From an uncultured virus (IMG/VR IMGVR_UViG_3300029448_000007) (lineage: Duplodnaviria; Heunggongvirae; Uroviricota; Caudoviricetes; Crassvirales), in the IMG/VR virus record IMGVR_UViG_3300029448_000007: a stretch of 28,102 nt of DNA, one strand, 5' to 3'. The notes beneath the pieces were generated by a model. The model had not been told where the DNA came from. It did not search any database and saw only the letters and a program-made list of their open reading frames with translations. A program made the position numbers and the translations under genes. Positions 11,395-28,102 of the stretch are shown in pieces; position 1 is the first letter of the stretch; every line of letters starts with the position of its first letter.

Positions 11395-12244
11395 GTTCTT
11401 TTACTTTTTGTCTTTTACCCAACTCATTTTTAACTATTACGGAACCATCCTTAAAAAACTTTTCGATAAAATAGTTTTTGTTTTTTCTCAATAAAATCTT
11501 TTTACCTTTCTTAATAGTTTTTGTAGGGTATATTGCCTCTACAATACCACTAACTTGTCTTCCAGAACAATCTAATCTTTCCCTATAGGAACTAGTCAAG
11601 TTTCTTAAAACCCAATCAGATTTAAATGCTTTCTTAAGCGTGTCTTCTTTTATAAGAAGTGATCTTTGGTACATAATTGGTGCAAAAGAAAATGTTGGAA
11701 TACCAGCAATACATTTTAGAAGAGCAGTTTCTGGTTTGAAACCTCTTTTAATATATTTAAAATACTGATCTGGAACACAATGTTCACTTTGATAAGCATA
11801 GAAGCTTTCAGTTGCTGCAAATCTTATCAAACAGCCTGTTACATAGTTACCATCTGGAAAAGGAGAATCATTTTTTTTTCTAACATTACCCCTCTTACCA
11901 TAAGAAACCGTATAGCAATCTACTCTTTGAGCACACTTTTTTGCATAAATAACTCCTTTTTTTAAATCCATTTTATCGTATGTGCTAGAGTTTAACTCTT
12001 CTCTAACTTCTTTTGGAGGAGTAGCTTTTTTAGGTAATGGTATATCAACAATATTCTCTCTGATATGCTGTAAGAATCTAAGACCTTTGCTATTATAAGC
12101 ACCTATATAAATTTTAAATGAGTCGGCCGTTTTCATATTTTGCCAACAGTAACCATCTCTTAATATCTTATTTGCTATAGTACCAGTCCAGGTTCGACCA
12201 GTACATGTCATTACAGATCTTGGGACTCGTCTTGTATTTTCCAT
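11375..12244 (-). CDS. Hypothetical basic protein within amidoligase cluster
   Basis: 289-aa Lys/Arg-rich ORF overlapping both neighbours. Confidence 0.6.
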   Translation of the reverse strand: MENTRRVPRSVMTCTGRTWTGTIANKILRDGYCWQNMKTADSFKIYIGAYNSKGLRFLQHIRENIVDIPLPKKATPPKEVREELNSSTYDKMDLKKGVIYAKKCAQRVDCYTVSYGKRGNVRKKNDSPFPDGNYVTGCLIRFAATESFYAYQSEHCVPDQYFKYIKRGFKPETALLKCIAGIPTFSFAPIMYQRSLLIKEDTLKKAFKSDWVLRNLTSSYRERLDCSGRQVSGIVEAIYPTKTIKKGKKILLRKNKNYFIEKFFKDGSVIVKNELGKRQKVKEHVKNRY

Positions 12245-12957
12245 CGTATTAGTTTATTTAAGTGATCTCTATATTGCTCGATTCCCAACTCACCCAATGC
12301 TGGTGCGGAATTTATCTCACAAATAATGAAGTCACCTTTTTTATTTACTCTTACGTCACAAGCACCTAGATTTAAACCAGTTGCTTTTAATGCTCTTGAG
12401 CAATGCTCAATTATATCTTCCCAATTATCAGGTCTGTTGAAAAGCTCATGGTTGGAGCTTACCCAATTACAATTGTGAGAATTGAAAAACCATCTTTCTG
12501 TAGAGTCAGATCGTCTTAGTTTACGCCAAGACATGATTTCCCCTAAATCAGAAATATGAACTCTATACTCTCGAGAGTAGTTATAAAACTTCTCAATAAC
12601 ATATCTATCTATATTGTTAGAACTAACGAACTTTTCTAACTCTTTCTCATCTTTTATAAGTACCATACCTACACCTTGCCTACCATAATGTCTTTTTACA
12701 ACAAGTGGAAACTCAACATTGGTCAAGTCTTTGTACCACAGTGCTTGGTTGACATTATGCTTTTCAAACAAGGTCTTCATGATAAACTTAGAAGATGAAT
12801 TCTTAACTGACTGTACCGTATTGATATGCAAATCGGCATCTCTCTCTGTAACAGAACCGAGACGAACAACAACTCTATAAGGAGTTCTGTCTAATGTTCG
12901 CCTCAGCCCATTACAAGAGTGATTTCTAGATAAGACCTTAGGCCTTCTATATTTCAT
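12211..12957 (-). CDS. ATP-grasp ligase (RimK/glutathione synthetase-like)
   Basis: FPLVVK...GRQGVGM, IEKFY...EYRVH, GACDV...ICEINSAP. Confidence 0.9.
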   Translation of the reverse strand: MKYRRPKVLSRNHSCNGLRRTLDRTPYRVVVRLGSVTERDADLHINTVQSVKNSSSKFIMKTLFEKHNVNQALWYKDLTNVEFPLVVKRHYGRQGVGMVLIKDEKELEKFVSSNNIDRYVIEKFYNYSREYRVHISDLGEIMSWRKLRRSDSTERWFFNSHNCNWVSSNHELFNRPDNWEDIIEHCSRALKATGLNLGACDVRVNKKGDFIICEINSAPALGELGIEQYRDHLNKLIRWKIQDESQDL

Positions 12958-13325
12958 TATAGATTTGTAAAGTCACCTGATGGAATATAGTCTAGATCTT
13001 TTACATCATTATTCCAGATGTAAATATCTGCTTTACCGTGACTTGTTTCAACAGTCTCTGCACGATACATACCTTGACTAGGATTATTCCTGTATGCACC
13101 TTCAAGCCTGTCTAGATTCTTGACAATCTCAGGTTCAGTAACCTCATAGACATCAACGGTAATTTCTTCATTACCTTCAACAACTGCAGGAAACCATCCT
13201 ACATTGTACATTTTAAACTGCGGTTTGGTACGCTCGGTACCCAAATGTTTTGCTCTTTTTAAGAGCCTATTATTCCCGAACCCTGGTCTCAGGGTGCCAT
13301 AAACCGCAAAGCGCTTTGCTTTCAT
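12957..13325 (-). CDS. Gamma-glutamylcyclotransferase (AIG2/GGACT-like)
   Basis: AVYGTLRPG, FPAV, VDVYEV, LDRLEG, YR, SGDF. Confidence 0.9.
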   Translation of the reverse strand: MKAKRFAVYGTLRPGFGNNRLLKRAKHLGTERTKPQFKMYNVGWFPAVVEGNEEITVDVYEVTEPEIVKNLDRLEGAYRNNPSQGMYRAETVETSHGKADIYIWNNDVKDLDYIPSGDFTNL

Positions 13326-15472: not shown

Positions 15473-15986
15473 CTAAGTTTCTATTTTCTGCGTTAGACAC
15501 CTCGAATTTTTCAGGGAATCTTGCTTTCAGTTTTCTGATATTAGCTTCCCTAACTTCATCGGGGTTTAAAGAATGTGCTGTACACAAGTCGTTGATGTGT
15601 GTAAACACAGTATGGAGATAGTAATTATAGAAGCATTCGTCTTCATGTCCTTTAAAATAAGCATTAAAGCCGTCAGCTGCATTATAAATATCACCTGCCA
15701 TTGTTTGTAAAGCTCGTGTAGTTTTAGAACCAATCTTATTGACAGGCTCTACAATACCTAGATTTACATTCAACACACGATCCAGTGTGCAGGTAAAATA
15801 ATACAAGTCACCAAGTTCTTCAATAACGTTTGTAATATCGAGTTCTTTACCATACCCTACAACTTTCTTGAGGGCTGATAGATACTCACCTACTTCGGAC
15901 TTGATACCTAAGACACAATGCTCAACTTGTCTGTCTCTGTCTGCGTCGTCGTTCCAAGTTCTTTTGATTTCTTCTGTATACACCAA
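15435..15986 (-). CDS. MazG-like nucleotide pyrophosphohydrolase
   Basis: LGIKSEVGE...EELGDLYYF...NIRKLKARFPEKF. Confidence 0.85.
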   Translation of the reverse strand: MVYTEEIKRTWNDDADRDRQVEHCVLGIKSEVGEYLSALKKVVGYGKELDITNVIEELGDLYYFTCTLDRVLNVNLGIVEPVNKIGSKTTRALQTMAGDIYNAADGFNAYFKGHEDECFYNYYLHTVFTHINDLCTAHSLNPDEVREANIRKLKARFPEKFEVSNAENRNLDAERDAIANQES

Positions 15987-16717
15987 TTTATTGCTGTTTT
16001 TGCGTCCTTTATTAAAAGACTGTTAACTTGTTTGAAATGTCCCGAAGGATTAAAAGAATTTACTCCATAGAATCCTGAAGATGGGTGTCCTGTAGAAAAT
16101 ACTCTATGCTCATCAGAGACTATGGATTTAGCTTGTTTGCCCCATGCCATAACAATATCAGTAGGAGCAACGTGGAGTACAAATTTAATAAATTTATTCC
16201 ACGCAGGAGAAAAAGGAAATGTTAAAGATGAATTTAAAAACAATACGCCTTCGGAAGATAAGCTTTTAAGACTATCGTCAAAGTTCTTTATCTCTCCAAA
16301 CTCATCGTTCAAAGATTCTTTTATTCTTTTTAATGCATATGGTGTATAGTTTTGGTCTGTACCAAATGCAATACCATTTGCTATATTTTTAATCTGATAT
16401 GGTTCTTGACCAAGTACAATAACCTTAGTCTTCTCAAAGGGACATGCCTTGAAAGCTTCAAATACATTAAAGTTTCCTCTAGGCAGTCTACCTAAGTTCT
16501 TAAAGTACTTGTTATAAAGCATATCGGATAGAGGTTTCTTCCAAGTCCCAAAAGACTTATCTAAAAAATCTTCATACTTTATATTCTCGTACTCTTTTTG
16601 GTCTTTACTCATCTGTAAATCGACTATTAGATTGCACTTTGTACATTTGAACCACCCGTCGTTTATCTCCACGTACTTATGAAGAGTTCCTTTGCAGTAA
16701 TGCATTGTGCTTTTCAA
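15908..16717 (-). CDS. ung: Family-1 uracil-DNA glycosylase-like protein with N-terminal Cys/His extension
   Basis: VFEAF...KVIVLGQEPY, ANGIAF, GVLFLNSSLT, WGKQA, HPS, HFKQVN...INW. Confidence 0.8.
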   Translation of the reverse strand: MKSTMHYCKGTLHKYVEINDGWFKCTKCNLIVDLQMSKDQKEYENIKYEDFLDKSFGTWKKPLSDMLYNKYFKNLGRLPRGNFNVFEAFKACPFEKTKVIVLGQEPYQIKNIANGIAFGTDQNYTPYALKRIKESLNDEFGEIKNFDDSLKSLSSEGVLFLNSSLTFPFSPAWNKFIKFVLHVAPTDIVMAWGKQAKSIVSDEHRVFSTGHPSSGFYGVNSFNPSGHFKQVNSLLIKDAKTAINWCIQKKSKELGTTTQTETDKLSIVS

Positions 16718-16934
16718 TTAAAAATTCAACATACTGTTTCTTATCACCGTACTTGATGTGACAAGATCTACACAGAGCCATTAGATTCTCAATGAAGTCT
16801 GCTTTCTTACTGCCTCCCATACCACGAGCTTTAATATGGTGTATATCAACAGCAGTCTTTCTGCAAACTTCACAAGGAATCCAATCTGCTTCTGTGTATC
16901 CAAAATGATTAAGATATATTTTTTTGTAGGACAT
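16677..16934 (-). CDS. Small HNH endonuclease
   Basis: CEVC...DIHHI...NLMALCRSCH. Probable start is MSYKKIY at 16934 rather than 17027. Confidence 0.85.
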   Translation of the reverse strand: MSYKKIYLNHFGYTEADWIPCEVCRKTAVDIHHIKARGMGGSKKADFIENLMALCRSCHIKYGDKKQYVEFLIEKHNALLQRNSS

Positions 16935-17616
16935 GATTGATATACACAAGGTGTTGAATGTCCGCATCAAGCAGATGTTTCTTTTCTCCATTGGAGAAGT
17001 GTATATCTTCCGTATCAATGAAGTCAATTACCATTTCTTGCCCATTTAAATACACATATAGGTCTGCTTTTTCTTTTTTACAGTCTAACTTACCATTAAA
17101 GTCTGCCTTTAGTATGTCAATTATTTCATCAACTATATCACTGTTTTTAAATACAGGTCCTTCTTTAATCTTAAGTTTATTCAGACCCATTTCTTTTACA
17201 ATATCTTTTAGATGCTTTAGAGTTACATCTTCAACAGTTTCTAACCAATACCCACGATTAAGAACATACTCATAGATATCAGGACAATGAAAAAATAATT
17301 TGTACTTTTGATTTCCCCAAAGTCTATCTTGTTCTTGAAGTTGCTGATTACATCTTATATAGATTTTATATAATAGATTCCAAAATGTTTTTAGGTCAAT
17401 GTCTACATAACTACGAATACATAAGTAAGCATCTCTTCTGCTTCTGTTTCTACATTCTTTGCATTGAATTCTACCATCTTTGTAAAAAGTCTTTTCTGTA
17501 AAAGTCTTAACAAAGAGGTCTTCAAATGAAGAGGGTGTTTTAGACAAAAAGATATTGTCTGAGGCTTTTAAATAACTTTCTCTCGCCTGAAAGAAAGAGT
17601 CTGACTGTTTTCTCAT
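16909..17616 (-). CDS. Hypothetical protein
   Basis: 235-aa ORF with ATGA overlap with the helicase stop. Confidence 0.6.
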   Translation of the reverse strand: MRKQSDSFFQARESYLKASDNIFLSKTPSSFEDLFVKTFTEKTFYKDGRIQCKECRNRSRRDAYLCIRSYVDIDLKTFWNLLYKIYIRCNQQLQEQDRLWGNQKYKLFFHCPDIYEYVLNRGYWLETVEDVTLKHLKDIVKEMGLNKLKIKEGPVFKNSDIVDEIIDILKADFNGKLDCKKEKADLYVYLNGQEMVIDFIDTEDIHFSNGEKKHLLDADIQHLVYINHVLQKNIS

Positions 17617-18734
17617 TCGTTTCTAAATCTTTCGTACATTGGTGATGTGATTTCTGATGCTGGAGGAAGCTCTCTAAAATAATTAGAGGCACCTTTGAAA
17701 AGTAGTCCTGTTTCTTTACCTACAGGACCGTATCTGTTTTTCAGTGTAATAACACTCCTAAATTCATCCTGCAGAATCTTAGTGTTGTATTTCTGATAGT
17801 TGTTGATGCCATGATAATACGGGTTAAATATTCCTAGTATGGTATGTGCATCACGCTGAGTAAGTTTATTGTCGGCAAGCTTAGCCTTTGTAGGCTTTAG
17901 CTTTTCTTCAATCTTACTACCTAGCTTGGTAAACTCAGCGTTTTCACCATCTGAAACTTGCTGTTGAACATTGATGAATATATAGTTGAGGTTCTTTGTT
18001 ATGTTCATACGACCATAATCAGAACTCATCCTCGACATAGCTTTATGTAGAGTTTCTGCGTCCTTTTCTGGTGATAACAAAGAGAAGTGGTCAACCACAA
18101 CGATGACATATTCTTCTTCATCGTTAGGTATATAGTGAGAGAAAGCCCAATCAGATTTATCTCTAACAAGATCGAATTGGTCTCTGCTTAATACATTATT
18201 CTTTAGTGGGTCTTGCTTATAGTTATAATAATAGAATGTGCCATTCTGTAAAGCATACTCTTTAACCCTTTTGTAAATACCTGTTGGATTAGATATAGTG
18301 TCTATGATTTCAATATCCTTTGCAATATCGGAGAATTCTTTCTCTTCTTTCTCAAGGATGTTAATAACCTTAAGATCAACAGCTTCGCTCATAGACTGAA
18401 GCTGATTAACGTCTACTTTGATTTGATGTTTCTGATATAGATGGTTACAAAATAGACTCCTTGCAAACTCTGAACGAGTTTCTTCGAGAGCAAAATACAA
18501 AACCTTAAGTCTAATATTATTGTCTCTACAAAAAGTTCGTGCGTGATATAACCAATGCTTAGTAAACTGAGTCTTACCGACGCCAGAACCAGCAGTAAAA
18601 ATATAGTAATTACCCTTTATAAGACCAGGTATTACAGACGAAAATCTAGAAAATGGATTTGCTATACAGTTTACTTTACCTTCTAAAACTCTCTCTCGAT
18701 TACGTTTAAGCTCTTCAAGAGTTTGTTTTATCAT
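17613..18734 (-). CDS. DnaB-like replicative helicase (crAss-type)
   Basis: AGSGVGKT, YFALEE, VVVDHFSL, VQQQ, QRDAHTILG, LKNRYG. Confidence 0.88.
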   Translation of the reverse strand: MIKQTLEELKRNRERVLEGKVNCIANPFSRFSSVIPGLIKGNYYIFTAGSGVGKTQFTKHWLYHARTFCRDNNIRLKVLYFALEETRSEFARSLFCNHLYQKHQIKVDVNQLQSMSEAVDLKVINILEKEEKEFSDIAKDIEIIDTISNPTGIYKRVKEYALQNGTFYYYNYKQDPLKNNVLSRDQFDLVRDKSDWAFSHYIPNDEEEYVIVVVDHFSLLSPEKDAETLHKAMSRMSSDYGRMNITKNLNYIFINVQQQVSDGENAEFTKLGSKIEEKLKPTKAKLADNKLTQRDAHTILGIFNPYYHGINNYQKYNTKILQDEFRSVITLKNRYGPVGKETGLLFKGASNYFRELPPASEITSPMYERFRNE

Positions 18735-19021
18735 AGACGGTCACTGATAAGTTTAATAATAACCAGAGGTATAACAATAGAAAGAGCCAATGCAATAGGA
18801 TTATGACTGCATGTGACAGAAGCTGCTGTTAAATAAATAATAAATCCAAATGCAGCACTGGTAGGATTTACTTTTTGAATCATAGTAGTGAATCTAGCTT
18901 TGTACAAAGCATTCTTTTCACTTTTAGCGTAGATAGGAATCTCTTTTCCTTTCTTTGTAGTCACAATGTATTTGTTGTACTCCTCATGACTATTTGATTT
19001 TCTAGCAATTCTAATTTTCAT
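18731..19021 (-). CDS. Small protein with two C-terminal hydrophobic segments
   Basis: AAFGFIIYLTAASV and IALALSIVIPLVIIKLI. ATGA overlaps on both sides. Confidence 0.55.
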   Translation of the reverse strand: MKIRIARKSNSHEEYNKYIVTTKKGKEIPIYAKSEKNALYKARFTTMIQKVNPTSAAFGFIIYLTAASVTCSHNPIALALSIVIPLVIIKLISDRL

Positions 19022-19575
19022 ACCATTGTATTTTCTTCTTCTTGCAATTGCTCACAGTATGTAAGAAGGTCGGACAGTTCTATCCTTGTTTTTTCTTTCA
19101 GCACTGTTTTAAAGATGAAATAATCAGCTTGTCTTATATACTTGTAGTTTGTCTCAGAGTTTTCATTGATGTAGTTCTGAGTAGCTTCAAGTATCTGATC
19201 GTCTGTATAATCATACAGCGTTCTAAAACGAGCCATATTCTTCTCGACAAGTTTTTTGTTACCTATCGATTTAGATTTCAGACCTTCAAATAAAGATCTG
19301 TATTGACTAATAAAGTCACCTGATGTTTCAATGGTAAGCCCTTGTGTTACCTGTTTACCTTTATACCGCAGAGTATTTGAATACTGTCCTATCTTAATAT
19401 ACTTCTTTGCTTCAAGTATCTCTATGTCTTCTGCTGGTATTGGATATTCCTCACCCATCGCTAACATCACCAAGTAGGTATATTGATTTGGTGATATGGA
19501 TAACTCAGTAAGAAATTCTGTTTGGAAACTTATCTGCAATTGTTTTGAGAGTTTTAAGTTCCTCAAAGAAATCAT
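19018..19575 (-). CDS. Hypothetical protein (possible replication initiator/helicase loader)
   Basis: 185-aa ORF upstream of the helicase. The function is inferred from position only. Confidence 0.5.
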   Translation of the reverse strand: MISLRNLKLSKQLQISFQTEFLTELSISPNQYTYLVMLAMGEEYPIPAEDIEILEAKKYIKIGQYSNTLRYKGKQVTQGLTIETSGDFISQYRSLFEGLKSKSIGNKKLVEKNMARFRTLYDYTDDQILEATQNYINENSETNYKYIRQADYFIFKTVLKEKTRIELSDLLTYCEQLQEEENTMV

Positions 19576-19601
19576 CCAGAGCCTCTAGCTGAAAGTATAT
19601 C

Positions 19602-19805
19602 TCAGCTAAGGACTTCGGATTTGAATCTTCGGTACGCTTTTTCAACAGTTTCATCTTTGATATGAAATTCTAAGTAACCTTTATCTGTCTGTATCGTCCC
19701 TGAGATAGAACAATTTTCAACATCATTGCTATACACTTTAGGTCTAGCATCAATATGAAAATGTCCTAACTCAGGGTGTTCTTTGAATACTTTATCAATA
19801 TCCAT
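19602..19805 (-). CDS. Hypothetical protein
   Basis: 67-aa ORF overlapping the SF2 helicase end. Confidence 0.5.
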   Translation of the reverse strand: MDIDKVFKEHPELGHFHIDARPKVYSNDVENCSISGTIQTDKGYLEFHIKDETVEKAYRRFKSEVLS

Positions 19806-20919
19806 TTACTTCTGTTACATTGTACACATTCAAGTCAATCATTGACTTGTCAAACCATTTCTCTTCTTGAGTATATAGTGTCCTAAGAACGTACACTTTA
19901 CTCTTACCAGGAGAAAGTCTTAATCTTCCTAACCTTTGGATCATAGGTAATGTCTTACCATAATAGGAATGCATCAGAATATTCTGTACACCCTCTATGT
20001 TTGCACCTTGGGTCAGCAATTTAAATGAGGCGATGTTTTCAATCTTACCTCTCTCAAAAGCTTCTATTACTTGCGGACTATCTTTACGCTCACCTGAAAC
20101 TGTGTTTGGTGTGAGCTTTTCTAAAGCAGGTAAAGAGTTACCAAAGATAAGTAATCTTTTGGTGTCCTTGATAATTTTCTTAGCAACTTCATGCTTTGTA
20201 TTTGACGTATGCAGACATTCAAGACGCTTTCTGATAGCGTACTTCATCTGAAACTCTGCACTCTTTACACCTTTGTTTTTGAGCATAGCCGCTTTCTTAA
20301 AAGCTTTATCCCAATAGACATAGTTTTCCCACTCAGTAGTCATAAACTTTTTAGTCTTACTACCAGCCTCAATATTCTTTACTTTGTTGTCGAGTCTGAA
20401 GTTGACTACAATAATATCAAGTGGCTTTGACGTGCCGTTTTTGACACTATCGGTAAGTGAATAAGTATATACGACGGGAGCATACTTATCAAGTATGTCA
20501 CCCTTTGTGTAACCATCATACTCTACAGTTCTGTCAGTGGTTGCTGTCAAACCCATAAGCGCATCATAAGTATTGTTCTTATAAAACGATGAGTATGTAG
20601 GAGTTAGAGAGTCATGTATCTCATCAGCACCAACAAGTCCGAAGTGTTCTCCTTTCCATTTGTGTGCTGTTTGATATGTATTGAACTCAATCTCTACATC
20701 AAGAATTCTCTTGTCAATCTCTGCAAACTGCTGTATGTTTTTGCGTAGAGCATCTTCTCTGAGCTTTCTCTCCGCAAGGAATATCTTTCTACCTTCTGTA
20801 ACAAGACACGCTTTTAAAAACAACCATGTCTTACCAACACCTGTTGCTATCTCTGCAGTACCTTTCTTCGTTGGAAGCCATGCTTGTAAAGCTTCTTCCT
20901 GTATCTGATTTCTATTCAA
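19795..20919 (-). CDS. Superfamily 2 (DExH) helicase
   Basis: QEEA, ATGVGKT, ADEIHD, GLTAT, QGANI, QRLGRLR. Confidence 0.9.
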   Translation of the reverse strand: MNRNQIQEEALQAWLPTKKGTAEIATGVGKTWLFLKACLVTEGRKIFLAERKLREDALRKNIQQFAEIDKRILDVEIEFNTYQTAHKWKGEHFGLVGADEIHDSLTPTYSSFYKNNTYDALMGLTATTDRTVEYDGYTKGDILDKYAPVVYTYSLTDSVKNGTSKPLDIIVVNFRLDNKVKNIEAGSKTKKFMTTEWENYVYWDKAFKKAAMLKNKGVKSAEFQMKYAIRKRLECLHTSNTKHEVAKKIIKDTKRLLIFGNSLPALEKLTPNTVSGERKDSPQVIEAFERGKIENIASFKLLTQGANIEGVQNILMHSYYGKTLPMIQRLGRLRLSPGKSKVYVLRTLYTQEEKWFDKSMIDLNVYNVTEVNGY

Positions 20920-22730
20920 AACAAACTTCCTGTTTGGTTAACTATTTGATCTATGATCTTGTTAGCTTCTCTTGTGTAGAACTTGTAGTTGATATCTTTG
21001 AACTCGTGTGCATAATTAAACGGTTCAACATTATATCCTTTCCACACAAACTCTTTTCTTCCATCATCGTACTTTTTAAGAAGCACAGGCCCCTTGTTTG
21101 CAATAATATATCTAAAGTTCTTACCTACTGGCTCGTCACTATTGACGGTAACCAGATGACCTTTAGAATTTCTTCCAAACTTGGTAGCCATACAGAAGTC
21201 AAATATGTTATCTGACTCTTTAACTGTTTTTTCTACGGGTATTCCCTTTATAAAATAGTTCTCAATGGCTTTAGAAACAATGACCATCGAATGGTCTTTA
21301 TGAAACTCTCTTTCAGTGACAAACATTTTACCTTTCTTCTTTATCTTACCACTTGTGGTTTCAAAGATGAAGTTGTTGCAGTCACGCAAAGCCATCATTT
21401 TAAATCTGTCATACTCTACAGGAATATCAAAAGAAGCAAAAAACTCATCTGTAATTCTTTCCAACTCTTTTTCATTCTCAGGTTTGAGTTTATAAGTAAG
21501 ACCATCTGTGTTAGCATAAATTATCTTACCAACAGACTGTAGTTTTTCAGCCAACATAATAAGCATAAGCTGACCGTTAATAGTCACTTTGTATAAACAG
21601 AATGGGTCATACAAGAAAGAATACTCATCATTAAGTTTACCGTAGATAGAGTTAACAGTAATTTTTAATGACGCAGCTTCAAGTGCTGCTTCAGGGTCAC
21701 CTTTCTTTTTCTTGGCTTCAAGTCGTCTTGTAACTATCTCTCGTAGCACGTCAAGAAACTCAGGACCAAGATGCCTTGGAAATATATTAAATGTCAACAT
21801 CAGATGTGGGTAGTAGCTACCAGCATCTAAGTCTTTTAGAATAAACTCTCCTTCTTTTAAATAGAAAGGGTCGTTATCTGAATGCAAACCACCTTTTGCT
21901 ACTTTAAGTGGAAGCTCATCAAGTAAAAACTTGATCTCTTCAAAGTTACCGATGTTTTTTCTTCTTAGATCTTCAAGTAAAGACTGAAGTCTTGGGCTTT
22001 CAAATTTGATACGCTCATCAATAATATGTTCCATCCTGTAGTTGCGATACTGACCACGAAGATGTTTTATATAAGACTCTGCTTTACCTGTGACACGACA
22101 ATACTCTTTGAGCATTACTGTCTCACCAATAGCTGAGTTAGAGTGGTTTGATAGTTTTATACCATACTTTTTACCCAAGTCTTTACGAAGCTTGAGCATC
22201 TCTTGTGTTTCAAAGTGGTTGTAAAACTTCTCAGTCTCTCTAACATCATGTATATTATATGATATGACCTCATCAAATACAGACTCGTCAAGATAAGTTC
22301 CTGGAGGGTATGGAAGGTCTCTAACATCTTTAGACTGCATAGCAATCTCAAGACCTTTTAGTGATGTTCTCCGTGCTTTGTTATTGAAATGCCATAGCTT
22401 GAATAAATCAAGCTGTCGTATCCTATTTTTTACCATAGGATGCTTATTCTCAATAACTTCCTCATTGAAGTCGTATATAGCTTTGTTGATATCTTGAACA
22501 TGAGGTAAGTCTGAATCCATTACAAAGGATAAAATCTTTTGGTCATAGTGTAAACTATTAAAACCAATAAGACCTTTCACACCTTTGAGAAAATTATTCA
22601 TCTGTCTTAGCTCATTCTTTCTCTCGGAAACTTCGTAAGTATATACCTCATCTTCAAATGCAAATGTTACACAAAAGAAGTTAGGATATACCTCAATATC
22701 ATAGATATAGATCAGGCTTTTTTGCGCCAT
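20916..22730 (-). CDS. Family B DNA polymerase with 3'-5' exonuclease domain
   Basis: ExoI YDIEVY, ExoII GFNSLHYD, ExoIII YNIHDV. Polymerase motifs DLDAGSYYP, LKITVNSIYGK, YANTDG. Confidence 0.93.
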   Translation of the reverse strand: MAQKSLIYIYDIEVYPNFFCVTFAFEDEVYTYEVSERKNELRQMNNFLKGVKGLIGFNSLHYDQKILSFVMDSDLPHVQDINKAIYDFNEEVIENKHPMVKNRIRQLDLFKLWHFNNKARRTSLKGLEIAMQSKDVRDLPYPPGTYLDESVFDEVISYNIHDVRETEKFYNHFETQEMLKLRKDLGKKYGIKLSNHSNSAIGETVMLKEYCRVTGKAESYIKHLRGQYRNYRMEHIIDERIKFESPRLQSLLEDLRRKNIGNFEEIKFLLDELPLKVAKGGLHSDNDPFYLKEGEFILKDLDAGSYYPHLMLTFNIFPRHLGPEFLDVLREIVTRRLEAKKKKGDPEAALEAASLKITVNSIYGKLNDEYSFLYDPFCLYKVTINGQLMLIMLAEKLQSVGKIIYANTDGLTYKLKPENEKELERITDEFFASFDIPVEYDRFKMMALRDCNNFIFETTSGKIKKKGKMFVTEREFHKDHSMVIVSKAIENYFIKGIPVEKTVKESDNIFDFCMATKFGRNSKGHLVTVNSDEPVGKNFRYIIANKGPVLLKKYDDGRKEFVWKGYNVEPFNYAHEFKDINYKFYTREANKIIDQIVNQTGSLF

Positions 22731-23143
22731 TCTCCAAGGTTGAGTTTATGTATATCAATAGCATCTGAAATAAGATTCAAATTTGGAAAATAAAGAATTA
22801 TAACAGGTATCTGAATAAATGCTCTGTATGGGTCACAATAGATGTCCATACAACCTATTATCACAATCCAAAGGTATAAGATAGGTAGTGCAATAAGAGA
22901 AATCATCTCTGTCCATAAATACTTAGGGCCTTTGACAGCCACAGAGTTTTGAATTACCTCACCCAAACTATTATTGCTTGTGATTGAAAAGAAAAGACCT
23001 ATTGTAGCCGCTGCTATAATAGGATCCCAAATCATCAAAACAAATAGTGCAATGAGTAGAAGTCTTTGCCAGAATGTAGGCAAATGGTTACCACTGAACA
23101 GAAGAAACCTTCTATTGGTGATAGGTTTGAAGAAATTTTTCAT
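22712..23143 (-). CDS. Multi-pass membrane protein
   Basis: Three to four hydrophobic segments. Confidence 0.6.
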   Translation of the reverse strand: MKNFFKPITNRRFLLFSGNHLPTFWQRLLLIALFVLMIWDPIIAAATIGLFFSITSNNSLGEVIQNSVAVKGPKYLWTEMISLIALPILYLWIVIIGCMDIYCDPYRAFIQIPVIILYFPNLNLISDAIDIHKLNLGEWRKKA

Positions 23144-23609
23144 ACTCTGGTTTTATTTCATCTAAAATCTTTCTTGAGTAATTCTTTTTGCCCAGGTTTT
23201 CATCTATCTGAACAAAAGGATAGTCAATTAATCTTTTGCGTAGAACATAAGCAGCGTCATACCCATATTTATTCTCTATGTGATTGATAAATATGTTTGT
23301 ATGATCTTCTTCATCTTCATAAGCAACGTCAATCTTTAACAACTCAAGTCGTAGAGGTTTTTGACGTTTAATGGAATTGATGTGGAGGTTGTTGATGTAG
23401 AAACCTTTAGCCATTTTCTTAAAATAGTTGACAACATGAGGTATAGATTTGAACTCAGAATCTATCAAAGATTCTACTCTTTCAAGCATATTGTCTAAAG
23501 CTTTGTCAATAGCTATGTCATCTAAATCTTTATGCCTAAACGCGTAATAAAATATTTCAGGCTGTAGAATTTTCGTGTTCTCTACTATCTCCCAACTTAA
23601 TTTTATCAT
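23112..23609 (-). CDS. Hypothetical protein, possibly ECF sigma-factor-like
   Basis: 165 aa. Helical N-domain (IFYYAF...VVNYFKKMAKGFYIN) and C-terminal HTH-like segment (YVLRKRLIDYPFVQIDENLG). Confidence 0.4.
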   Translation of the reverse strand: MIKLSWEIVENTKILQPEIFYYAFRHKDLDDIAIDKALDNMLERVESLIDSEFKSIPHVVNYFKKMAKGFYINNLHINSIKRQKPLRLELLKIDVAYEDEEDHTNIFINHIENKYGYDAAYVLRKRLIDYPFVQIDENLGKKNYSRKILDEIKPEYEKFLQTYHQ

Positions 23610-24126
23610 GGTAGGTATCTAAAAGGTTATTTAGTTTTACGTTAGCCCAGTTGTGACCAGCGTTAGAAATCTCACCACCGATGTTTTTTATATCAGAGAA
23701 TAAATCTCTAACAACATCTTTGAGGTCATTTGTTTTTCTAATGTATTCTTCTTTTAGAACATCTTCTCTTTGCTTGTTATCTAACTGGTCTAAGATAAAA
23801 CTAAAATACTGTTTACTCTTTACTCTTCTCCATATAGGGTCAAGAATACTAATAGCTCTCTGATATTCTTCTTGAATAATCTCGTTGTCGGAGTCAATAG
23901 TACGCTTTTCTAATTTAATACAACTAGTTCTGTGAATACAGCCTAGTTCTTCAGCAATTTCTGTTGGTTTTGCTTCACCAAGTCTAAATAATATGTATAG
24001 ATTTCTTGCAAATACTGCAGCGGCTCTTCTGTTTGGAACCAATACTTCATCAATAGTAATAGTCGAGCTTCTAAAATGCTGTGTTACATTACAGCATTCA
24101 ATCATAAATTCTGGATGTTTGATCAT
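23557..24126 (-). CDS. Protein with DnaA domain IV (Bac_DnaA_C)-like helix-turn-helix
   Basis: ITIDEVLVPNRRAAAVFARNLYIL...PTEIAEELGCIHRTSCI resembles DnaA R...VxARQIAMYL...LxEIGxxFGxRDHTTV. Confidence 0.6.
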   Translation of the reverse strand: MIKHPEFMIECCNVTQHFRSSTITIDEVLVPNRRAAAVFARNLYILFRLGEAKPTEIAEELGCIHRTSCIKLEKRTIDSDNEIIQEEYQRAISILDPIWRRVKSKQYFSFILDQLDNKQREDVLKEEYIRKTNDLKDVVRDLFSDIKNIGGEISNAGHNWANVKLNNLLDTYHDKIKLGDSREHENSTA

Positions 24127-24262
24127 CTAAAATTTCTTTTACGGATTTACCAAAGACTTCTTGTACAGCTTGTTCTGCTGTTTTACCTTCAGTTACTAAC
24201 TTTTTTGCTTCCTTATATTTCTCATTCCAAGAGTCTTCCCAAAATGTAAAGTCGTTACTCAT
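24098..24262 (-). CDS. Hypothetical 54-aa protein
   Basis: Manual translation MSNDFTFWEDSWNEKYKEAKKLVTEGKTAEQAVQEVFGKSV..., with TAATG coupling to the upstream ORF. Confidence 0.5.
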   Translation of the reverse strand: MSNDFTFWEDSWNEKYKEAKKLVTEGKTAEQAVQEVFGKSVKEILDDQTSRIYD

Positions 24263-24480
24263 TATAAAAACCTTGGTGGTTCAAACCATTTTTTAGATAT
24301 TTCATAAACAGAATCATAAACGGAATCGTCAAGATAATCTGCCTCTGTAACTTCAACAACCCACTTTTTAGATTTTGAATTGAATCTCTTTAATCTAACA
24401 AGACACCATGCTAAATTATGAGGAACACCAAGGTTATCTTGTAGTCTGACAATATCACCTACTTCATACTTTATTTTCAT
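24262..24480 (-). CDS. Small SH3-like beta-barrel hypothetical protein
   Basis: KYEVGDIVRL start motif typical of small phage SH3-fold proteins. Confidence 0.55.
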   Translation of the reverse strand: MKIKYEVGDIVRLQDNLGVPHNLAWCLVRLKRFNSKSKKWVVEVTEADYLDDSVYDSVYEISKKWFEPPRFL

Positions 24481-24707
24481 TTTGTTTTAAATTTTTTACG
24501 AAGTTTTCTTACATATTCAAGTAAAGCCATTGCTACTCTTTGATCGGAATCAAACATTCTAGTTAAGCTGGATTCATACATAAATAATTTATCCCACTCA
24601 TAACTTGAAAGTTGACTCATTTCCCAAAGCTCTTTGTCTTTTACTCTTGATGGTATATTGCACTCACAGTTTTCAACTGTTTGATTACAATATTTACAAT
24701 CACTCAT
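24477..24707 (-). CDS. Small protein with N-terminal CxxC...CxC motif
   Basis: MSDCKYCNQTVENCECNIPS. Its ATG comes from the repeat at 24705. Confidence 0.6.
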   Translation of the reverse strand: MSDCKYCNQTVENCECNIPSRVKDKELWEMSQLSSYEWDKLFMYESSLTRMFDSDQRVAMALLEYVRKLRKKFKTK

Positions 24708-25090
24708 CTCTCTTCGGTGTTATCGGGTGTTGTGTCTAATGCTATCCTAAGTACCCATTTAAGAGTATTAATATCTCGCTGAACATCTTCTTTCGCTTGC
24801 ATATAATGTCCTCTAACTTTTGCATCTTCTTCTTTGATTAGAAGTTTTTCAACTGCATCAAGATTTTTTTGCAATTCGTCTATTTTATTCTGTATCTCTT
24901 TTCGATTTTTCATTTCAACATCAGGCATTATACCAAACACCTCATTAATTGTTTCTTTACTATACCCATCTATCTCTAATGCTAATTCTATTGCGCCCCT
25001 AATAGCATAAGGGTAATGACACGTTTTAGTATCTATTGTTACTATTGGTGTTTGAATTTCACTTTGGTTTCTTTCAATAATTATCTTCAT
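24704..25090 (-). CDS. Hypothetical protein (probably two fused modules), ends DNTEER
   Basis: Start reassigned to the repeat-borne ATG at 25090 (MKIIIERN). Internal MKNRKEIQ coiled-coil module. Confidence 0.6.
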   Translation of the reverse strand: MKIIIERNQSEIQTPIVTIDTKTCHYPYAIRGAIELALEIDGYSKETINEVFGIMPDVEMKNRKEIQNKIDELQKNLDAVEKLLIKEEDAKVRGHYMQAKEDVQRDINTLKWVLRIALDTTPDNTEER

Positions 25091-25131
25091 CTCTCTTTGG
25101 TGTTTGTTATTAGATGTTGTAAAACATAAAA

Positions 25132-25299
25132 TTATTCCATCCATTTCTTAGTGCGCCTTAAAAACTTCTTACGGTCATATTTTTTCCACCAACCTTTTTT
25201 GAAGTAAGATAAGTGTTTACCTTTTTTATCCAAAGGCGCACCACAATCACCTTCTTCGTAATTGTGCCATTTCTCTGTTTTTACTCTTCCTATTTTCAT
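25132..25299 (-). CDS. Hypothetical 55-aa basic protein
   Basis: MKIGRVKTEKWHNYEEGDCGAPLDKKGKHLSYFKKGWWKKYDRKKFLRRTKKWME*. Starts at a repeat ATG. Confidence 0.6.
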   Translation of the reverse strand: MKIGRVKTEKWHNYEEGDCGAPLDKKGKHLSYFKKGWWKKYDRKKFLRRTKKWME

Positions 25300-25331
25300 C
25301 TCTCTTTGGTTTTAGCGGGTGTTATGGTGCA

Positions 25332-25526
25332 TTATCCCTCGCTAGGTACTTTTGTCTTTTCTCTAGGCTGTTTGGTTTCGTAGTACCAAATATGAATCAT
25401 CGGAAAATTCCTAACACTACCGTCTTCAAACAATAAAGCCAAGGTACACCCCTCAATAAAATGAGATAGTACATTATCATAATGAATTGGTGTTGTCGTG
25501 TCTTTTAGTTTAATCTTTACTTTCAT
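25332..25526 (-). CDS. Hypothetical 64-aa protein
   Basis: Starts at a repeat ATG and stops just before the GTT core at 25321. Confidence 0.6.
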   Translation of the reverse strand: MKVKIKLKDTTTPIHYDNVLSHFIEGCTLALLFEDGSVRNFPMIHIWYYETKQPREKTKVPSEG

Positions 25527-25849
25527 CTCTCTTTGGTGTTTAGTTTAATTTTAGCAGTTTCCAAGCCTCTCCAAATTACACAAGTGGGAAACTTGATTTC
25601 CGTTTTTAACCCCATGTCAAGGGCAATATCTTGAAAGTCTTGAGACATTTCATGCCGCAAATAGCAAAGCATTGAATTTGTTTCTGTCTCAAAAGACCAA
25701 TGAGCATCGTTACCATTACCACTTTGGTCGTACCAAGTTGAAATATAGCCGGTCACCTCTCTTTTGTAAGGCTCACCCACATAAGTGGTGCTTAATCTCC
25801 TTGTTGAGTATGCAGCAAGTGCTTTAGGGTATTCGTTAAGTACGTTCAT
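25523..25849 (-). CDS. Hypothetical protein, ends LNTKER
   Basis: Starts and ends in repeat copies. Contains AAYSTRRL and WYDQSGNGNDA. Confidence 0.6.
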   Translation of the reverse strand: MNVLNEYPKALAAYSTRRLSTTYVGEPYKREVTGYISTWYDQSGNGNDAHWSFETETNSMLCYLRHEMSQDFQDIALDMGLKTEIKFPTCVIWRGLETAKIKLNTKER

Positions 25850-26004
25850 CTCTCTTTGGTGTTTAGATGTTCAAGAATATCAGCGGCCAGGTCCCTGATC
25901 TCTACCAAGATGTCACAAATATCAACGGCCACTTCCCTGACCTTCTTCGCACAGAAGAAGATCACGGAGCACAGGGCGATGGTCAAAAGGATCGTCTGTA
26001 TCAT
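25846..26004 (-). CDS. Small membrane-anchored protein, ends LNTKER
   Basis: MIQTILLTIALCSVIFFCAKKVREVAVDICDILVEIRDLAADILEHLNTKER*. Bounded by two repeats and visibly more GC-rich than its neighbours. Confidence 0.6.
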   Translation of the reverse strand: MIQTILLTIALCSVIFFCAKKVREVAVDICDILVEIRDLAADILEHLNTKER

Positions 26005-26042
26005 TTCTCTTTGGTGTTAGCAGTTGTTGTAGTGCATTGTGC

Positions 26043-26240
26043 CTACCATATTATTGGTCGTTCACACCTTCCGCAAAGTCCTGGCCTACCATCAATATCA
26101 GGTAGTTCACATTCACAACGGCACAACGTACCCTTCGGTTTCATTTTGCATAAATCAAAAAGTCCTTTGTGTTTTTCCTTTGAGGGTATGTGACATTCAC
26201 AATTCTCAATGGTCTGTCCACATTCTTTGCAGTTTTTCAT
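26043..26240 (-). CDS. Small Cys-rich (double Zn-finger-like) protein
   Basis: CKEC...CEC and CRCEC...CGRC motifs. Confidence 0.6.
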   Translation of the reverse strand: MKNCKECGQTIENCECHIPSKEKHKGLFDLCKMKPKGTLCRCECELPDIDGRPGLCGRCERPIIW

Positions 26241-26263
26241 ATTTCTTTAAACGTTGTGGTGCA

Positions 26264-26404
26264 TTAGACTAAATCAATCACTTCAATCGTAAACGCTACT
26301 CCTTCTGTAGAGTAGTGGCGAAGTGCAAACCTGTGTGCGATTCTCGTATAGCTTCGGTCTACTATTTTACCGTTTACTATAATTCTGTATTCTTTCTGAG
26401 GCAT
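26264..26404 (-). CDS. Hypothetical 46-aa protein
   Basis: MPQKEYRIIVNGKIVDRSYTRIAHRFALRHYSTEGVAFTIEVIDLV*. Starts at a repeat ATG and stops beside the core at 26253. Confidence 0.55.
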   Translation of the reverse strand: MPQKEYRIIVNGKIVDRSYTRIAHRFALRHYSTEGVAFTIEVIDLV

Positions 26405-26430
26405 CTTTCTTTGGTGTTAGTGGGTGTTAG

Positions 26431-26625
26431 CTACAATATTCTCTCGGATAGTTTATGCCCTTCTTCCGTAGGAAACTTATGTCCACATTTTGGGCACTTG
26501 CATCTAAGAGTAATGTAACCGTTTAATATTCGGTTTAGCTTCGATTTCATTTCTGCATCATCAGTACAGTTGTAAAGGCTAATAATCTCTTCCTTTAGTT
26601 CTTCTCTAATTTCTTCGTTTGTCAT
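26431..26625 (-). CDS. Small protein with CPKCG zinc-knuckle
   Basis: LRCKCPKCGHKF. Stop lies inside the core site GTTAGCTACAAT at 26426. Confidence 0.55.
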   Translation of the reverse strand: MTNEEIREELKEEIISLYNCTDDAEMKSKLNRILNGYITLRCKCPKCGHKFPTEEGHKLSERIL

Positions 26626-26658
26626 ATCATTAAGTTTTATTTAATTCGCTCATAGGGC

Positions 26659-26829
26659 TTATCTCTCTTCGGTGTTGCAAGTTACTATGTAAGGAGGGTT
26701 ACACGGATTCCGAGTGTCGTTTGGATAGTATGGGTGTATTACTACATGATTTTCTGATAGTAGTATTACTGCTTCTTCTGCTGTAATGTGATTACCCTCT
26801 AATAATCTCTGAATTATCTCTGCTTTCAT
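26659..26829 (-). CDS. Hypothetical 56-aa protein, ends NTEER
   Basis: MKAEIIQRLLEGNHITAEEAVILL...YIVTCNTEER*. Bounded by repeats. Confidence 0.6.
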   Translation of the reverse strand: MKAEIIQRLLEGNHITAEEAVILLSENHVVIHPYYPNDTRNPCNPPYIVTCNTEER

Positions 26830-26969
26830 CTCTCTTTAGTCTTTAGGTATAGCTCAAAAAGTTCAGATAACTTTACCCATTCATTGATATGATTTTTGTA
26901 TAGCCAATAATGAAATTCGGTGTTAAACTCCCTTTTATTCTTGAAGTAGTTTTTTCTGATTTCACTCAT
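26826..26969 (-). CDS. Hypothetical 47-aa protein, ends KTKER
   Basis: MSEIRKNYFKNKREFNTEFHYWLYKNHINEWVKLSELFELYLKTKER*. Bounded by repeats. Confidence 0.6.
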   Translation of the reverse strand: MSEIRKNYFKNKREFNTEFHYWLYKNHINEWVKLSELFELYLKTKER

Positions 26970-26991
26970 CTCTCTTTGGTGTTAGCTGGTG

Positions 26992-27366
26992 TTAGTGGCA
27001 ATTTTACTCACCACTCCGAAAGACATCAGCGTTGAAATATTTAGCCAAGTTCTCAACCTCTTGCTTAAATTCTGTTTCATCACGCATTGTCTTGCATAAC
27101 AATATTTCTACAACTCCATCTACTTTTTTGCTCAAACAATAAGCAAGAGCATTTTTATCGTAAGTGTCAACGCCCATTGCATAATACGGCTGTTTAATGA
27201 TAGCTTTATCCAACAGAGATTTGTCGAATAAAAAACTGCCACTAACATCGGCTATAAAATCATTGCCGTTTTTGTGCTTACCAGAAGTTTCGTTCTCTTT
27301 ACTCATTTTGTTTCTAATTTGAAAGTTATAGCGTTTTAATCGGCAACGCTTCATAGCCGTGATACG
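26992..27366 (+). mobile_element. Integron-like gene cassette 1 (gene antisense to attC)
   Basis: Starts G/TTAGTGGCA (26991-27000). Perfect inverse core TGCCACTAAC (27237-27246) opens the attC-like hairpin ending at GTT 27366. Confidence 0.75.
27004..27306 (-). CDS. Cassette-borne hypothetical protein (100 aa)
   Basis: Probable start MSKENET at 27306, inside the hairpin loop. Reads FIADVSGS across the left arm. Confidence 0.65.
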   Translation of the reverse strand: MSKENETSGKHKNGNDFIADVSGSFLFDKSLLDKAIIKQPYYAMGVDTYDKNALAYCLSKKVDGVVEILLCKTMRDETEFKQEVENLAKYFNADVFRSGE

Positions 27367-27372
27367 TTATCT
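27240..27372 (+). other. attC-like recombination site A
   Basis: cactAAC-at-CGGCTAT-aaaat-cattgccg ... cggcaacg-cttc-ATAGCCG-tgatac-GTTatct. Confidence 0.75.
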
Positions 27373-27643
27373 ACAAGTTTTTTGTAGACTCTACTTTATC
27401 ACGAACAGCGTTGATATAGGCTTTGCCATAATTTCTAAAATCACCTGTCTTTCCTTTTTTCATAAGTTTATCTACGTGTTGGGTTTCTAATCCTTCAAGC
27501 AAAGCCCTTAACTTTCGTTTATAACTATTTCTTGCTGGGTATAAAAACCAGTAGATAACACGGGCTATAAAGCCATTTTTTGAATCTTTCTGCATAATAT
27601 TAATATTTTAGGTTTATAAAAACAGGCTCATAGCCCAGCTACG
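27367..27643 (+). mobile_element. Integron-like gene cassette 2
   Basis: Starts G/TTATCTAC (27366-27374). Perfect inverse core GTAGATAAC (27551-27559). Confidence 0.75.
27371..27595 (-). CDS. Cassette-borne hypothetical protein (74 aa)
   Basis: ATG inside the hairpin loop. Reads FIARVIY across the left arm. Stop lies in the core site. Confidence 0.65.
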   Translation of the reverse strand: MQKDSKNGFIARVIYWFLYPARNSYKRKLRALLEGLETQHVDKLMKKGKTGDFRNYGKAYINAVRDKVESTKNL

Positions 27644-27649
27644 TTAGGC
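27553..27649 (+). other. attC-like recombination site B
   Basis: agatAAC-ac-GGGCTAT-aa-agcc ... ggct-c-ATAGCCC-agctac-GTTAGGC (canonical GTTRRRY). Confidence 0.75.
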
Positions 27650-27973
27650 TTCATTACCGAGACGCATTATATCATCAAGTTTTTCTGATAATTCGTTCCT
27701 TGTTTGTTCTGCATGAGTGTATCTACGTACTCCATACAAATGCATCATATATTTTACTTCTTCGATAAATTCAAGCAAAGAAACGTTAACATCGGCTAAA
27801 ACGAAATTATTATTTACTTTAATCCTGCGTTCCATTTCTTGCCTTGCTTCTACATAAGCATCGTGCATATTTTTACTTCTTGGGTTGTTTAATGCTCGGC
27901 TGTGCAGTTGGCACACTAACTCAAGCAAGTCAAGAGTATTTCTTTCTTCAACTGGTTTTAGTTCTGTATTCAT
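27644..27973 (-). CDS. Cassette-borne hypothetical protein (109 aa)
   Basis: ATG inside the hairpin loop. Reads VLADVNVS across the left arm. TAA overlaps the core site. Confidence 0.65.
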   Translation of the reverse strand: MNTELKPVEERNTLDLLELVCQLHSRALNNPRSKNMHDAYVEARQEMERRIKVNNNFVLADVNVSLLEFIEEVKYMMHLYGVRRYTHAEQTRNELSEKLDDIMRLGNEA

Positions 27974-28023
27974 ATTTATTGTTTTTAATTCGTAAATAAT
28001 AACTATCGTTTAGCCGTGTTCCG
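27644..28023 (+). mobile_element. Integron-like gene cassette 3
   Basis: Runs from core G/TTAGGC to GTT at 28023. The inverse core (cgttaac) is only partly complementary. Confidence 0.6.
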
Positions 28024-28029
28024 TTGTTC
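27784..28029 (+). other. attC-like recombination site C (unusually long loop)
   Basis: cgttAAC-at-CGGCTAA-a-acga-aa-ttattatttac ... gtaaataataa-cta-tcgt-TTAGCCG-tgttcc-GTTgttc. Confidence 0.65.
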
Positions 28030-28102
28030 GCAATTAAGGCAGGTTCAATTCCGAAACAGGACAAAAGTGAGTTGGGTAAAAATCAAATTCAGTTCCACTT
28101 AC

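Follow-up and report, generated by a model that had tools for sequence, protein, structure and literature searches.

A nearly invariant repeat at gene junctions is likely a PeSL-like linker between exchangeable mini-gene cassettes of marine phages

The DNA analyzed here, hereafter the window, is a 28,102-nucleotide (nt) stretch from an uncultured virus (IMG/VR record IMGVR_UViG_3300029448_000007), and our subject is a short repeat that recurs at ten gene junctions in an array of small open reading frames (ORFs) toward its right end. This repeat is likely a linker comparable to the promoter-early stem-loop (PeSL) elements of T4-type phages, bounding exchangeable, translationally coupled mini-gene cassettes, with exchange proceeding most probably by short-homology recombination. 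On the coding strand, the linker comprises (i) a TAA stop at -15, (ii) AACACC-AAAGAGAG-ATG-A, and (iii) a TGA stop at +1, and it is found in early or replication operons of marine phages. The initial annotation had read the repeat as an attI-like site for an integron-type recombinase, which it is not; the alternative that it had offered, PeSL-like homologous shuffling between short repeats, is the one favored by the evidence presented below.

The repeat itself was described correctly. The 17-mer CATCTCTCTTTGGTGTT has ten plus-strand matches between 24705 and 26983 (starting at 24705, 25088, 25297, 25524, 25847, 26002, 26402, 26660, 26827, and 26967), against 0.16 expected from shuffled sequences, and none of 100 shuffles reached ten. 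Four copies match exactly, four carry one mismatch, and two carry two. Every copy lies at an ORF junction and is co-oriented with the genes; since the array ORFs are on the minus strand, the unit reads AACACCAAAGAGAG-ATG, or in full (C)TAACACC-AAAGAGAG-ATG(A). The CAT of the plus-strand repeat is the ATG start codon of the next small ORF, so that the repeat supplies the start of nine array ORFs, as had been proposed. One copy departs from this pattern: that at 26660 has ATA in place of ATG, starts no gene, and lies inside the 3' end of ORF 26659-26829. Further, the repeat closes two frames of the preceding ORF, by TAA (-15) and by the TGA of ATGA. At five of the ten copies (26827, 26660, 25847, 25524, and 24705), the preceding ORF reads through the repeat and ends at the TGA of ATGA (at 26660, at a TAA), with C-termini such as ..NTKER. 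The five intergenic-type copies carry a second AACACC half in the arrangement TAACACC-N4-AACACC, which is a direct rather than an inverted repeat, with a 10-bp period in the long forms of the window. A GTT exactly 24 nt from the CAT had been noted for the copies at 24705, 25297, 26002, 26402, and 26967; it is present in exactly these five, after AGC/ATC-N4, because the duplicated AACACC half appears there as its reverse complement.

The motif marks exactly where cassettes have been gained, lost, replaced, or reordered, among related genomes as well as among unrelated backbones. Clustering of 1,419 ORFs from 120 loci gave 177 clusters, and the 209 motif-started ORFs, 79 of them singletons, form hypervariable arrays with conserved flanks. 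In a ~36-kb siphovirus lineage that includes a circular assembly (G006), an exonuclease VIII-like gene borders the array on one side and a primase/helicase gene on the other. The differences between close relatives amount to whole motif-to-motif units. Locus L052 has one more unit than L097, with the flanking aligned segments overlapping by 35 nt on the single motif of L097; L026 has one extra 203-nt unit relative to L043; and in the pairs L035/L011 and L040/L078, homology is regained 10-21 nt upstream of AACACC. A relative of the window (L188) is 95.6% identical to it over window positions 17145-24722 and then becomes unrelated exactly at the copy at 24705 (24705-24731), which is the left edge of the variable array. 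A 297-kb and a 212-kb record share one cassette with 100% identity across the 296 nt that separate its motifs, whereas its flanks are 73-85% identical or unalignable, and the same cassette is 94% identical to a copy in the ~36-kb siphovirus lineage. Any one cassette family neighbors many different families, before or after, and the window unit at 26661-26843 shows 70% nt (64-65% amino acid, aa) identity to motif-bounded units of L052 and L097. Two hallmarks of PeSLs are therefore found here, namely insertions, deletions, and replacements between close relatives that end in motif copies, and a concentration of the motif in hypervariable regions rich in ORFans. The initial annotation had called for a search for empty and occupied alleles, and the exchange point does show occupancy polymorphism, between relatives as well as in metagenome contigs.

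We also examined how positions around the motif co-vary with the neighboring cassettes. Variation at positions -26 to -16 tracks the upstream cassette family (p <= 0.006 at 9 of 11 positions, the exceptions being -23 with p = 0.054 and -20 with p = 0.026), and positions -12 and -1, the two variable core positions on which the downstream signal rests, co-vary with the downstream cassette (p ~0.02 each). This polarity suggests that every unit has an AACACC..ATG head of its own.

Conservation across IMG/VR copies is flat and strong. The consensus from 228 distinct contexts is AAACCTTTAACACCAAAGAGAGATGA, in which positions -14 to +3 are 97-100% invariant, except for -12 (82% C) and -1 (86% G); the A following the ATG is 96% conserved, and the ATG itself is present in 242 of the 247 copies found. 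When preceding ORFs of at least 30 codons are considered across these 242 copies, the preceding stop is the TGA at +1 in 93 and the TAA at -15 in 32, lies at -22 in 7, and is scattered further upstream in 14, while 96 copies have no preceding ORF of that size (contig ends included). The motif thus closes two frames, often with a third closed just before, and then restarts translation. The downstream ORFs have a median length of 55 aa, with at least 40 aa in 160 of the 220 closed ORFs. A motif-encoded tail, ..ETFNTKER, ends unrelated protein families, and all third-codon positions of the ..FNTKER reading are invariant; therefore, the constraint is on the nucleotides and not on the peptide. Such near-2-bit conservation over ~18 bases, free of synonymous change, would point to selection for, or homogenization by, uninterrupted identity, and would not fit a degenerate protein-binding site.

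Metagenome assemblies extend these observations. Parts of the array are present in 20 runs from 9 studies of marine water, and we compared contigs of three DNA runs and one RNA run (X19) over window positions 22500-28102; the RNA run, too, contains parts of the array, in contigs that reveal no transcript starts and thus do not bear on promoters. Stretches of the window that lack coverage in a run, such as 27175-27548 in X4, carry no weight here. Of the 30 endpoints of the 15 listed joints, 25 fall within 5 nt of a motif copy, while the copies with their 5-nt margins cover ~6% of the compared region. In the clearest joint, an X4 contig (record 20) passes from 24703 to 25296 with sides of 686 and 255 nt, and thus lacks the two cassettes that the window has between copies 24705 and 25297; an X2 contig (record 11) runs on in agreement with the window. 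Joints fall at the copy at 26967 (25865>26966, 26031>26966, 26993>28032, and 26984>28023), at 26002 (25540>26002), at 25847 (25863>27366 and 25865>26966), and at 25524 (25109>25521 and 25324>25521), and those recurring across studies are 25109>25521 (X4, X8), 25863>27366 (X8, X19), and 26984>28023 (X2, X4). Joints with short sides count here only as homologous units in other motif-bounded contexts. Two joints that go back along the window, 26845>25296 and 27802>25293, may represent circles, such as the excised mini-circles formed by PeSLs, or other gene orders, which contigs cannot separate. In X8, cassette bins reach a depth of 491 as against ~7-8 for the backbone (22500-24556), and the cassettes therefore occur also in other, more abundant genomes.

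At least 123 IMG/VR loci contain an exact match to the 17-mer. Among the matches listed, 113 of 123 loci have a phage-type context, defined as at least two copies or TT..A flanks, and within every locus all copies are co-oriented, with up to 15 copies in 7 kb. Five genomes or records examined whole (~36 kb, 59 kb, 117 kb, 297 kb, and the window) each contain one main cluster of 3-10 copies, and G006 and G023 (the 117-kb record) each have one stray lone match outside it. By comparison, 596 Gb of bacterial and archaeal genomes gave 57 single exact matches, where ~69 would be expected for a random 17-mer; only six of the 57 are in phage context, three of these in metagenome-assembled genomes of Flavobacteriaceae or Flavobacteriales. 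Matches in Flavobacterium and Polaribacter isolates fall inside conserved coding genes, and a complete Polaribacter genome has one match at up to two mismatches, inside a coding gene, and 25 at up to three mismatches versus 14 for a reversed control. Given its presence in IMG/VR and these chance-level cellular counts, the motif is therefore virus-specific, and the 596-Gb scan together with the Polaribacter genome led us to reject a host-wide signal. A genome-wide signal devoid of insertion polymorphism, which the initial annotation had named as the outcome that would overturn its idea, is likewise not what we find, because the motif is both virus-specific and polymorphic. None of 50,697 GenBank phage records carries the motif, partial matches in nine records having chance E-values (E 1-4), and in a literature search for CACCAAAGAGAG no paper contained it other than in unrelated primers (eight hits). 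Of 157 copies, 28 lie within 150 nt of a contig end versus ~4.3 expected, which could reflect assembly breaks at variable junctions or arrays near genome ends. At L136 (60-92), two motif copies stand in tandem, 16 nt apart (AACACCAAATAGAGAT-AACACCAAAGAGAGATG); such tandem copies, there and at joints like 25109>25521, may be junctions left empty or traces of a lost unit.

The mechanism that we propose for the linker would require only 17-26 nt of uninterrupted identity. Exchange would be carried out by homologous-recombination or annealing functions of the phage or the host during co-infection, with no dedicated site-specific recombinase; the built-in stops and start would keep every recombinant viable, by stopping the upstream ORF in two frames and preserving the downstream ATG; and ATGA coupling, with termination followed by reinitiation, would allow promoterless cassettes to be translated in a host group that dispenses with Shine-Dalgarno (SD) sites. 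Genes for such recombination are at hand: the window encodes a Sak4-like annealing protein and an exonuclease VIII-like protein, and phrog_412, a recombination exonuclease, occurs in the window, in 19 of 30 records, and in 6 of the 7 records with at least 90% completeness. Several observations weigh against this interpretation: (i) a stretch of 17-26 nt is near the lower limit for homologous recombination to be efficient; (ii) the phrog_412 count has no background control and comes from records many of which belong to one lineage, and the 297-kb record lacks this exonuclease; (iii) translational coupling is predicted from gene anatomy, and the remaining five of the ten window copies are intergenic, with the preceding stop 24-35 nt upstream; (iv) most of the contig joints are short-sided (20-39 nt) and derive from other motif-sharing genomes or from repeats; (v) the linkage pattern hints at a preferred exchange point, and site-specific activity would give the same pattern; and (vi) a promoter or operator role, though doubtful, remains a rival reading.

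We searched for a factor that the motif-bearing viruses might share. Comparison of the five whole genomes (ORFs of at least 60 aa, blastp E up to 1e-4) revealed no protein family common to all. Two families present in four of the five are tail-fiber or baseplate proteins (collagen repeats, an endosialidase-chaperone domain, and BppL_N), which is more in line with a common host group than with a common enzyme. A phage bS21 was considered as a motif-linked factor and rejected: homologs (E 1e-10 to 6e-12) occur in 3 of 30 records, G012, G024, and G026 (212, 167, and 297 kb), which are the three largest motif-bearing ones, and the other 27 have none. As for recombinases, no tyrosine recombinase and no recombinase of any other family was found among the window ORFs with PHROGs and Pfam, the sole nuclease domain being an HNH at 16677-17027, and PF00589 was detected in none of 30 motif-bearing viral records (0 of 7 at 90% completeness or more), whereas the positive control was found in 14 of 14 genomes. 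Further, none of the 12 inverted repeats found in 24400-28102 overlaps a motif copy, and the junctions show no hairpin or dyad symmetry.

Could the motif primarily be an expression signal recognized by a factor, either a promoter read by a phage or host RNA polymerase of unrecognized specificity or an operator in the RNA through which a regulator controls early-gene translation? Recombination would then be a by-product of conservation, as for PeSL promoters. We regard this as rather unlikely, although the motif is confined to early or accessory arrays and directly abuts the ATG, and its conservation begins 22 nt before the ATG, which would be -17 if the G that precedes the ATG by five nt were the transcription start. 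The block CACCAAAGAGAGA also presumably resembles the -7 to +6 part of T3/T7-type promoters, and the host-type -7 element, which we take to be TANNTTTG, is absent from the coding strand in 24000-28102. A T7-like promoter was nevertheless rejected as a candidate, because PF00940, the T7-like RNA polymerase family, was found in none of five records (two at least 90% complete) in a search run without a positive control. The comparison of the five genomes offers no common family as a shared trans-factor, host genomes do not use the motif, sigma-70-like sites number 10 as against 14.3 expected, with none on a motif copy, and flat invariance over ~18 consecutive bases is unlike protein-binding sites. 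No stem-loop terminator was found at the motif copies, and the motif contains no U from -14 to -1. Nor is there special complementarity to flavobacterial 16S rRNA: in RNAduplex, the motif and the Polaribacter 16S rRNA gave -8.9 kcal/mol versus a shuffle mean of -11.6, with 284 of 300 shuffles as good or better, and the 3' tail of the 16S rRNA gave -5.1 versus -5.5 for shuffles. Pairing of AGAGAG with the terminal CUUUCU was considered as well; it is unsupported, as AGAGAG abuts the AUG, against SD geometry. The Polaribacter 16S 3' tail (L183), which reads ..GGAACACCUCCUUU, holds AACACC in the sense of the motif, not as its complement; an AACACC in 16S rRNA is expected by chance, and its position in the tail is curious. 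For the crAss-like Cellulophaga phage phi14:2, a published account reports that the early genes have no upstream motif in common.

A dedicated, non-integron site-specific system acting at a fixed point near TTT/AAC, with an enzyme that is cassette-borne or host-encoded, would account for the switch of linkage between -16 and -12, for the resumption of homology 10-21 nt upstream of AACACC in relatives, for window variants that diverge directly after ATAAC at 27366, and for the direct AACACC-N4-AACACC repeat with its 10-bp period in the long forms. We consider such a system improbable: no recombinase family was found in the window and no PF00589 in the 30 motif-bearing records, no protein family is present in all five genomes, the copies lack dyad symmetry, the downstream linkage comes from two variable positions with p ~0.02 each, and the cassette proteins have no Pfam domain. 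Far less probable still is the integron-like reading, in which the repeat would be a reiterated attI-type site served by an integrase shared with attC hairpins of the right-hand cassettes. It would explain small promoterless cassettes in one orientation, GTT/AAC at the ends of similarity, and polymorphic occupancy, but the PF00589 result, the absence of a recombinase from the window, and the lack of junction hairpins all speak against it, as does the presence of the same site at every junction, 3-15 per array, in place of a single attI. Moreover, the attC arms described to the right do not belong to this system. The element at 27323-27370 (minus strand; ATAAC-GTATCACGGCTATGAAGCGTTGCCGATTAAAACGCT-ATAAC, with the hairpin AGCGTT/AACGCT) is the 5' leader of gene 27004-27306 and not a 3' cassette site, its ends being direct rather than inverted TAAC repeats, and the second attC-like site is a terminator-like hairpin with a T-run at 27623-27643 (minus strand), after gene 27644-27973. 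We give practically no credence to the notion that the repeat is no more than a C-terminal peptide (..ETFNTKER) common to the upstream ORFs, or a remnant of one ancestral gene duplicated in tandem. Many upstream ORFs do end in FNTKER/K, but the flanking ORFs are unrelated (79 of 209 motif-started ORFs being singletons, among 177 clusters), the synonymous positions are all invariant, 32 of 242 upstream ORFs end in the other frame at the -15 TAA, and five of the ten window copies are intergenic. We therefore retain a PeSL-like linker with short-homology exchange as the preferred reading. A bolder form of it, which we advance only tentatively but with somewhat more confidence than the expression signal, would make the motif a selected, virus-borne universal linker and an integrase-free functional analog of the integron, in which each unit has its own AACACC..ATG head and a preferred exchange point at TTT/AAC (-16 to -12), unrelated phages of one host group share the linker, termination-reinitiation allows expression anywhere, host- or cassette-encoded help is possible, and the linker is kept for mobility and not for regulation.

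The leader at 27323-27370 deserves description in its own right. It reads TAACG-N5-GGCTATGAAGCGTTGCCGATTAAAACGCT-(A)TAAC-TTTCAAAT..ATG, lies 22-27 nt before the ATG, and is the conserved hairpin leader of a single gene family: it stands upstream of an ATG in 12 of 12 IMG/VR loci (L194-L205), and gene and leader alike are shared with gp8 of Cellulophaga phage phi17:1. The product of the leader gene mostly begins MSKEN..NGND, and an Rfam search of 23500-28102 (E up to 1) returned no match. The leader may be a cis-regulatory RNA or a promoter element.

How does the motif compare with known systems? PeSLs are mobile regulatory cassettes of T4-type phages, and, according to two reports (PMC2839356, PMC4122927), they share with our motif (i) repeated, co-oriented junction motifs in hyperplastic regions rich in small ORFans, (ii) a span from the stop of the upstream gene to the next start codon, and (iii) insertions, deletions, and replacements between close relatives that end in motifs, with homologous recombination held responsible. 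PeSLs combine a sigma-70-like promoter with an AT-rich tract, a terminator formed by a stem-loop, and an SD site; they vary in subclass and are restricted to T4-type myoviruses. Unlike a PeSL, our motif is 17-26 nt long and nearly invariant, has no recognizable promoter, hairpin, or SD site, consists of two-frame stops and an ATG, and is common to unrelated backbones, from ~36-kb siphoviruses to the 297-kb record. With integron attI/attC arrays, the motif system shares small, promoterless cassettes in one orientation, expression from outside, polymorphic occupancy, and a junction that can supply translation signals; it differs in having neither IntI nor attC hairpins, in the identical direct repeat at every junction, and in its occurrence in lytic-type phage genomes. 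The "linker" or boundary sequences of lambdoid phages, associated with Susskind and Botstein, are reportedly short conserved intermodule sequences proposed to target homologous recombination to gene boundaries. Lambdoid boundary sequences are sporadic and debated, whereas the single linker described here is nearly invariant and recurs hundreds of times, and the exchange of units at it can be measured. The stoperators of cluster A mycobacteriophages are short, asymmetric, co-oriented junction sites, often overlapping starts or stops, that occur genome-wide and bind the phage's own repressor; our motif copies, unlike stoperators, lie in one array and go with no common phage protein.

The array of the window comprises 11 small ORFs (46-128 aa) at 24477-26969 on the minus strand, nine of which start at a motif ATG, and a Pfam search found no family for any of the 11. 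All junction copies are on the minus strand as well. The first, a long form at 26967-26995 (CTAACACC-AG-CTAACACC-AAAGAGAG-ATG), has its ATG at 26969-26967 and starts a 47-aa ORF (26826-26969), which reads through the second copy (26827-26843, two mismatches) to stop at the TGA of its ATGA, where a 56-aa ORF (26659-26829) begins. The third copy (26660-26676) is vestigial and encodes the C-terminus (..NTEER) of that ORF; the gene after it (26431-26625) starts without a motif. ORF 26431-26625 contains a CxCPxC motif and matches no Pfam family. The fourth (26402-26430) and fifth (26002-26028) copies are intergenic long forms that start ORFs of 46 aa (26264-26404) and 52 aa (25846-26004), and the sixth (25847-25863) and seventh (25524-25540) are exact copies with an ATGA stop/start overlap that start ORFs of 108 aa (25523-25849) and 64 aa (25332-25526). 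Then follow a long form at 25297-25323 (ATAACACC-CGCT-AAAACC-AAAGAGAG-ATG), which starts a 55-aa ORF (25132-25299); an exact copy at 25088-25104, which starts a 128-aa ORF (24704-25090); and the tenth copy, also a long form, which overlaps the end of ORF 24704-25090 through its ATGA and starts a 76-aa ORF (24477-24707). The ORFs at 24477-24707 and 26043-26240 (minus strand) encode paralogous Cys-rich mini-proteins of the pattern M..C..C.QT.ENCEC.IPS..K.K, one of the two being motif-started.

The window is phage DNA, encoding by PHROGs a family A DNA polymerase, a primase, helicases, MazG, and an amidoligase/amidotransferase cluster, together with a Sak4-like annealing protein and an exonuclease VIII-like protein. 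Its sole DNA match to a GenBank phage (138 nt, 89% identity) is to Cellulophaga phage phi17:1, and its other genes have A-rich upstream regions with neither SD site nor motif; the phi17:1 match and the A-rich, SD-less upstream regions fit a Bacteroidota host, and the motif-bearing marine phages probably infect Flavobacteriia. Six protein families are common to the window and to G023, a 100%-complete IMG/VR record. In G023, the array lies between a helicase gene and a homolog of ORF 15908-16717, across the contig ends, whereas in the window it lies upstream of the DNA polymerase gene; arrays therefore occupy different places in related genomes. Elsewhere in the window, the minus-strand cluster at 7585-13325 holds genes for an amidoligase, a glutamine amidotransferase, a COOH-NH2 ligase, and a gamma-glutamyl cyclotransferase (PHROGs), along with an S6-glutaminyl-transferase-like ATP-grasp gene, and looks like a phage module for peptide ligation or modification. 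A 219-nt segment at 16926-17144, overlapping the 5' part of the HNH endonuclease ORF (16677-17027), is replaced by ~3 nt in L188 and L189, relatives with 94-96% identity. At the left end, a plus-strand ORF of 1,504 aa (3-4517), open at its left, matches no Pfam family and gives a single weak PHROG hit; G023 contains a homolog of this ORF, which converges on the replication operon.

Do conserved linkers guide phage mosaicism, or is it the product of random illegitimate joins? The question is an old one. One sequence of 17-26 nt, present in at least 113 uncultured viral loci and coinciding with exact unit ends, provides a system in which linker-guided exchange can be measured, and the linker could serve as a handle for finding gene pools in viromes and for engineering cassettes into phages. 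The backbones that carry identical units range from ~36 kb to 297 kb. The accessory genes of the arrays are probably host-takeover or anti-defense genes, and our findings suggest that such promoterless genes circulate as a common pool among marine phages of Flavobacteriia.

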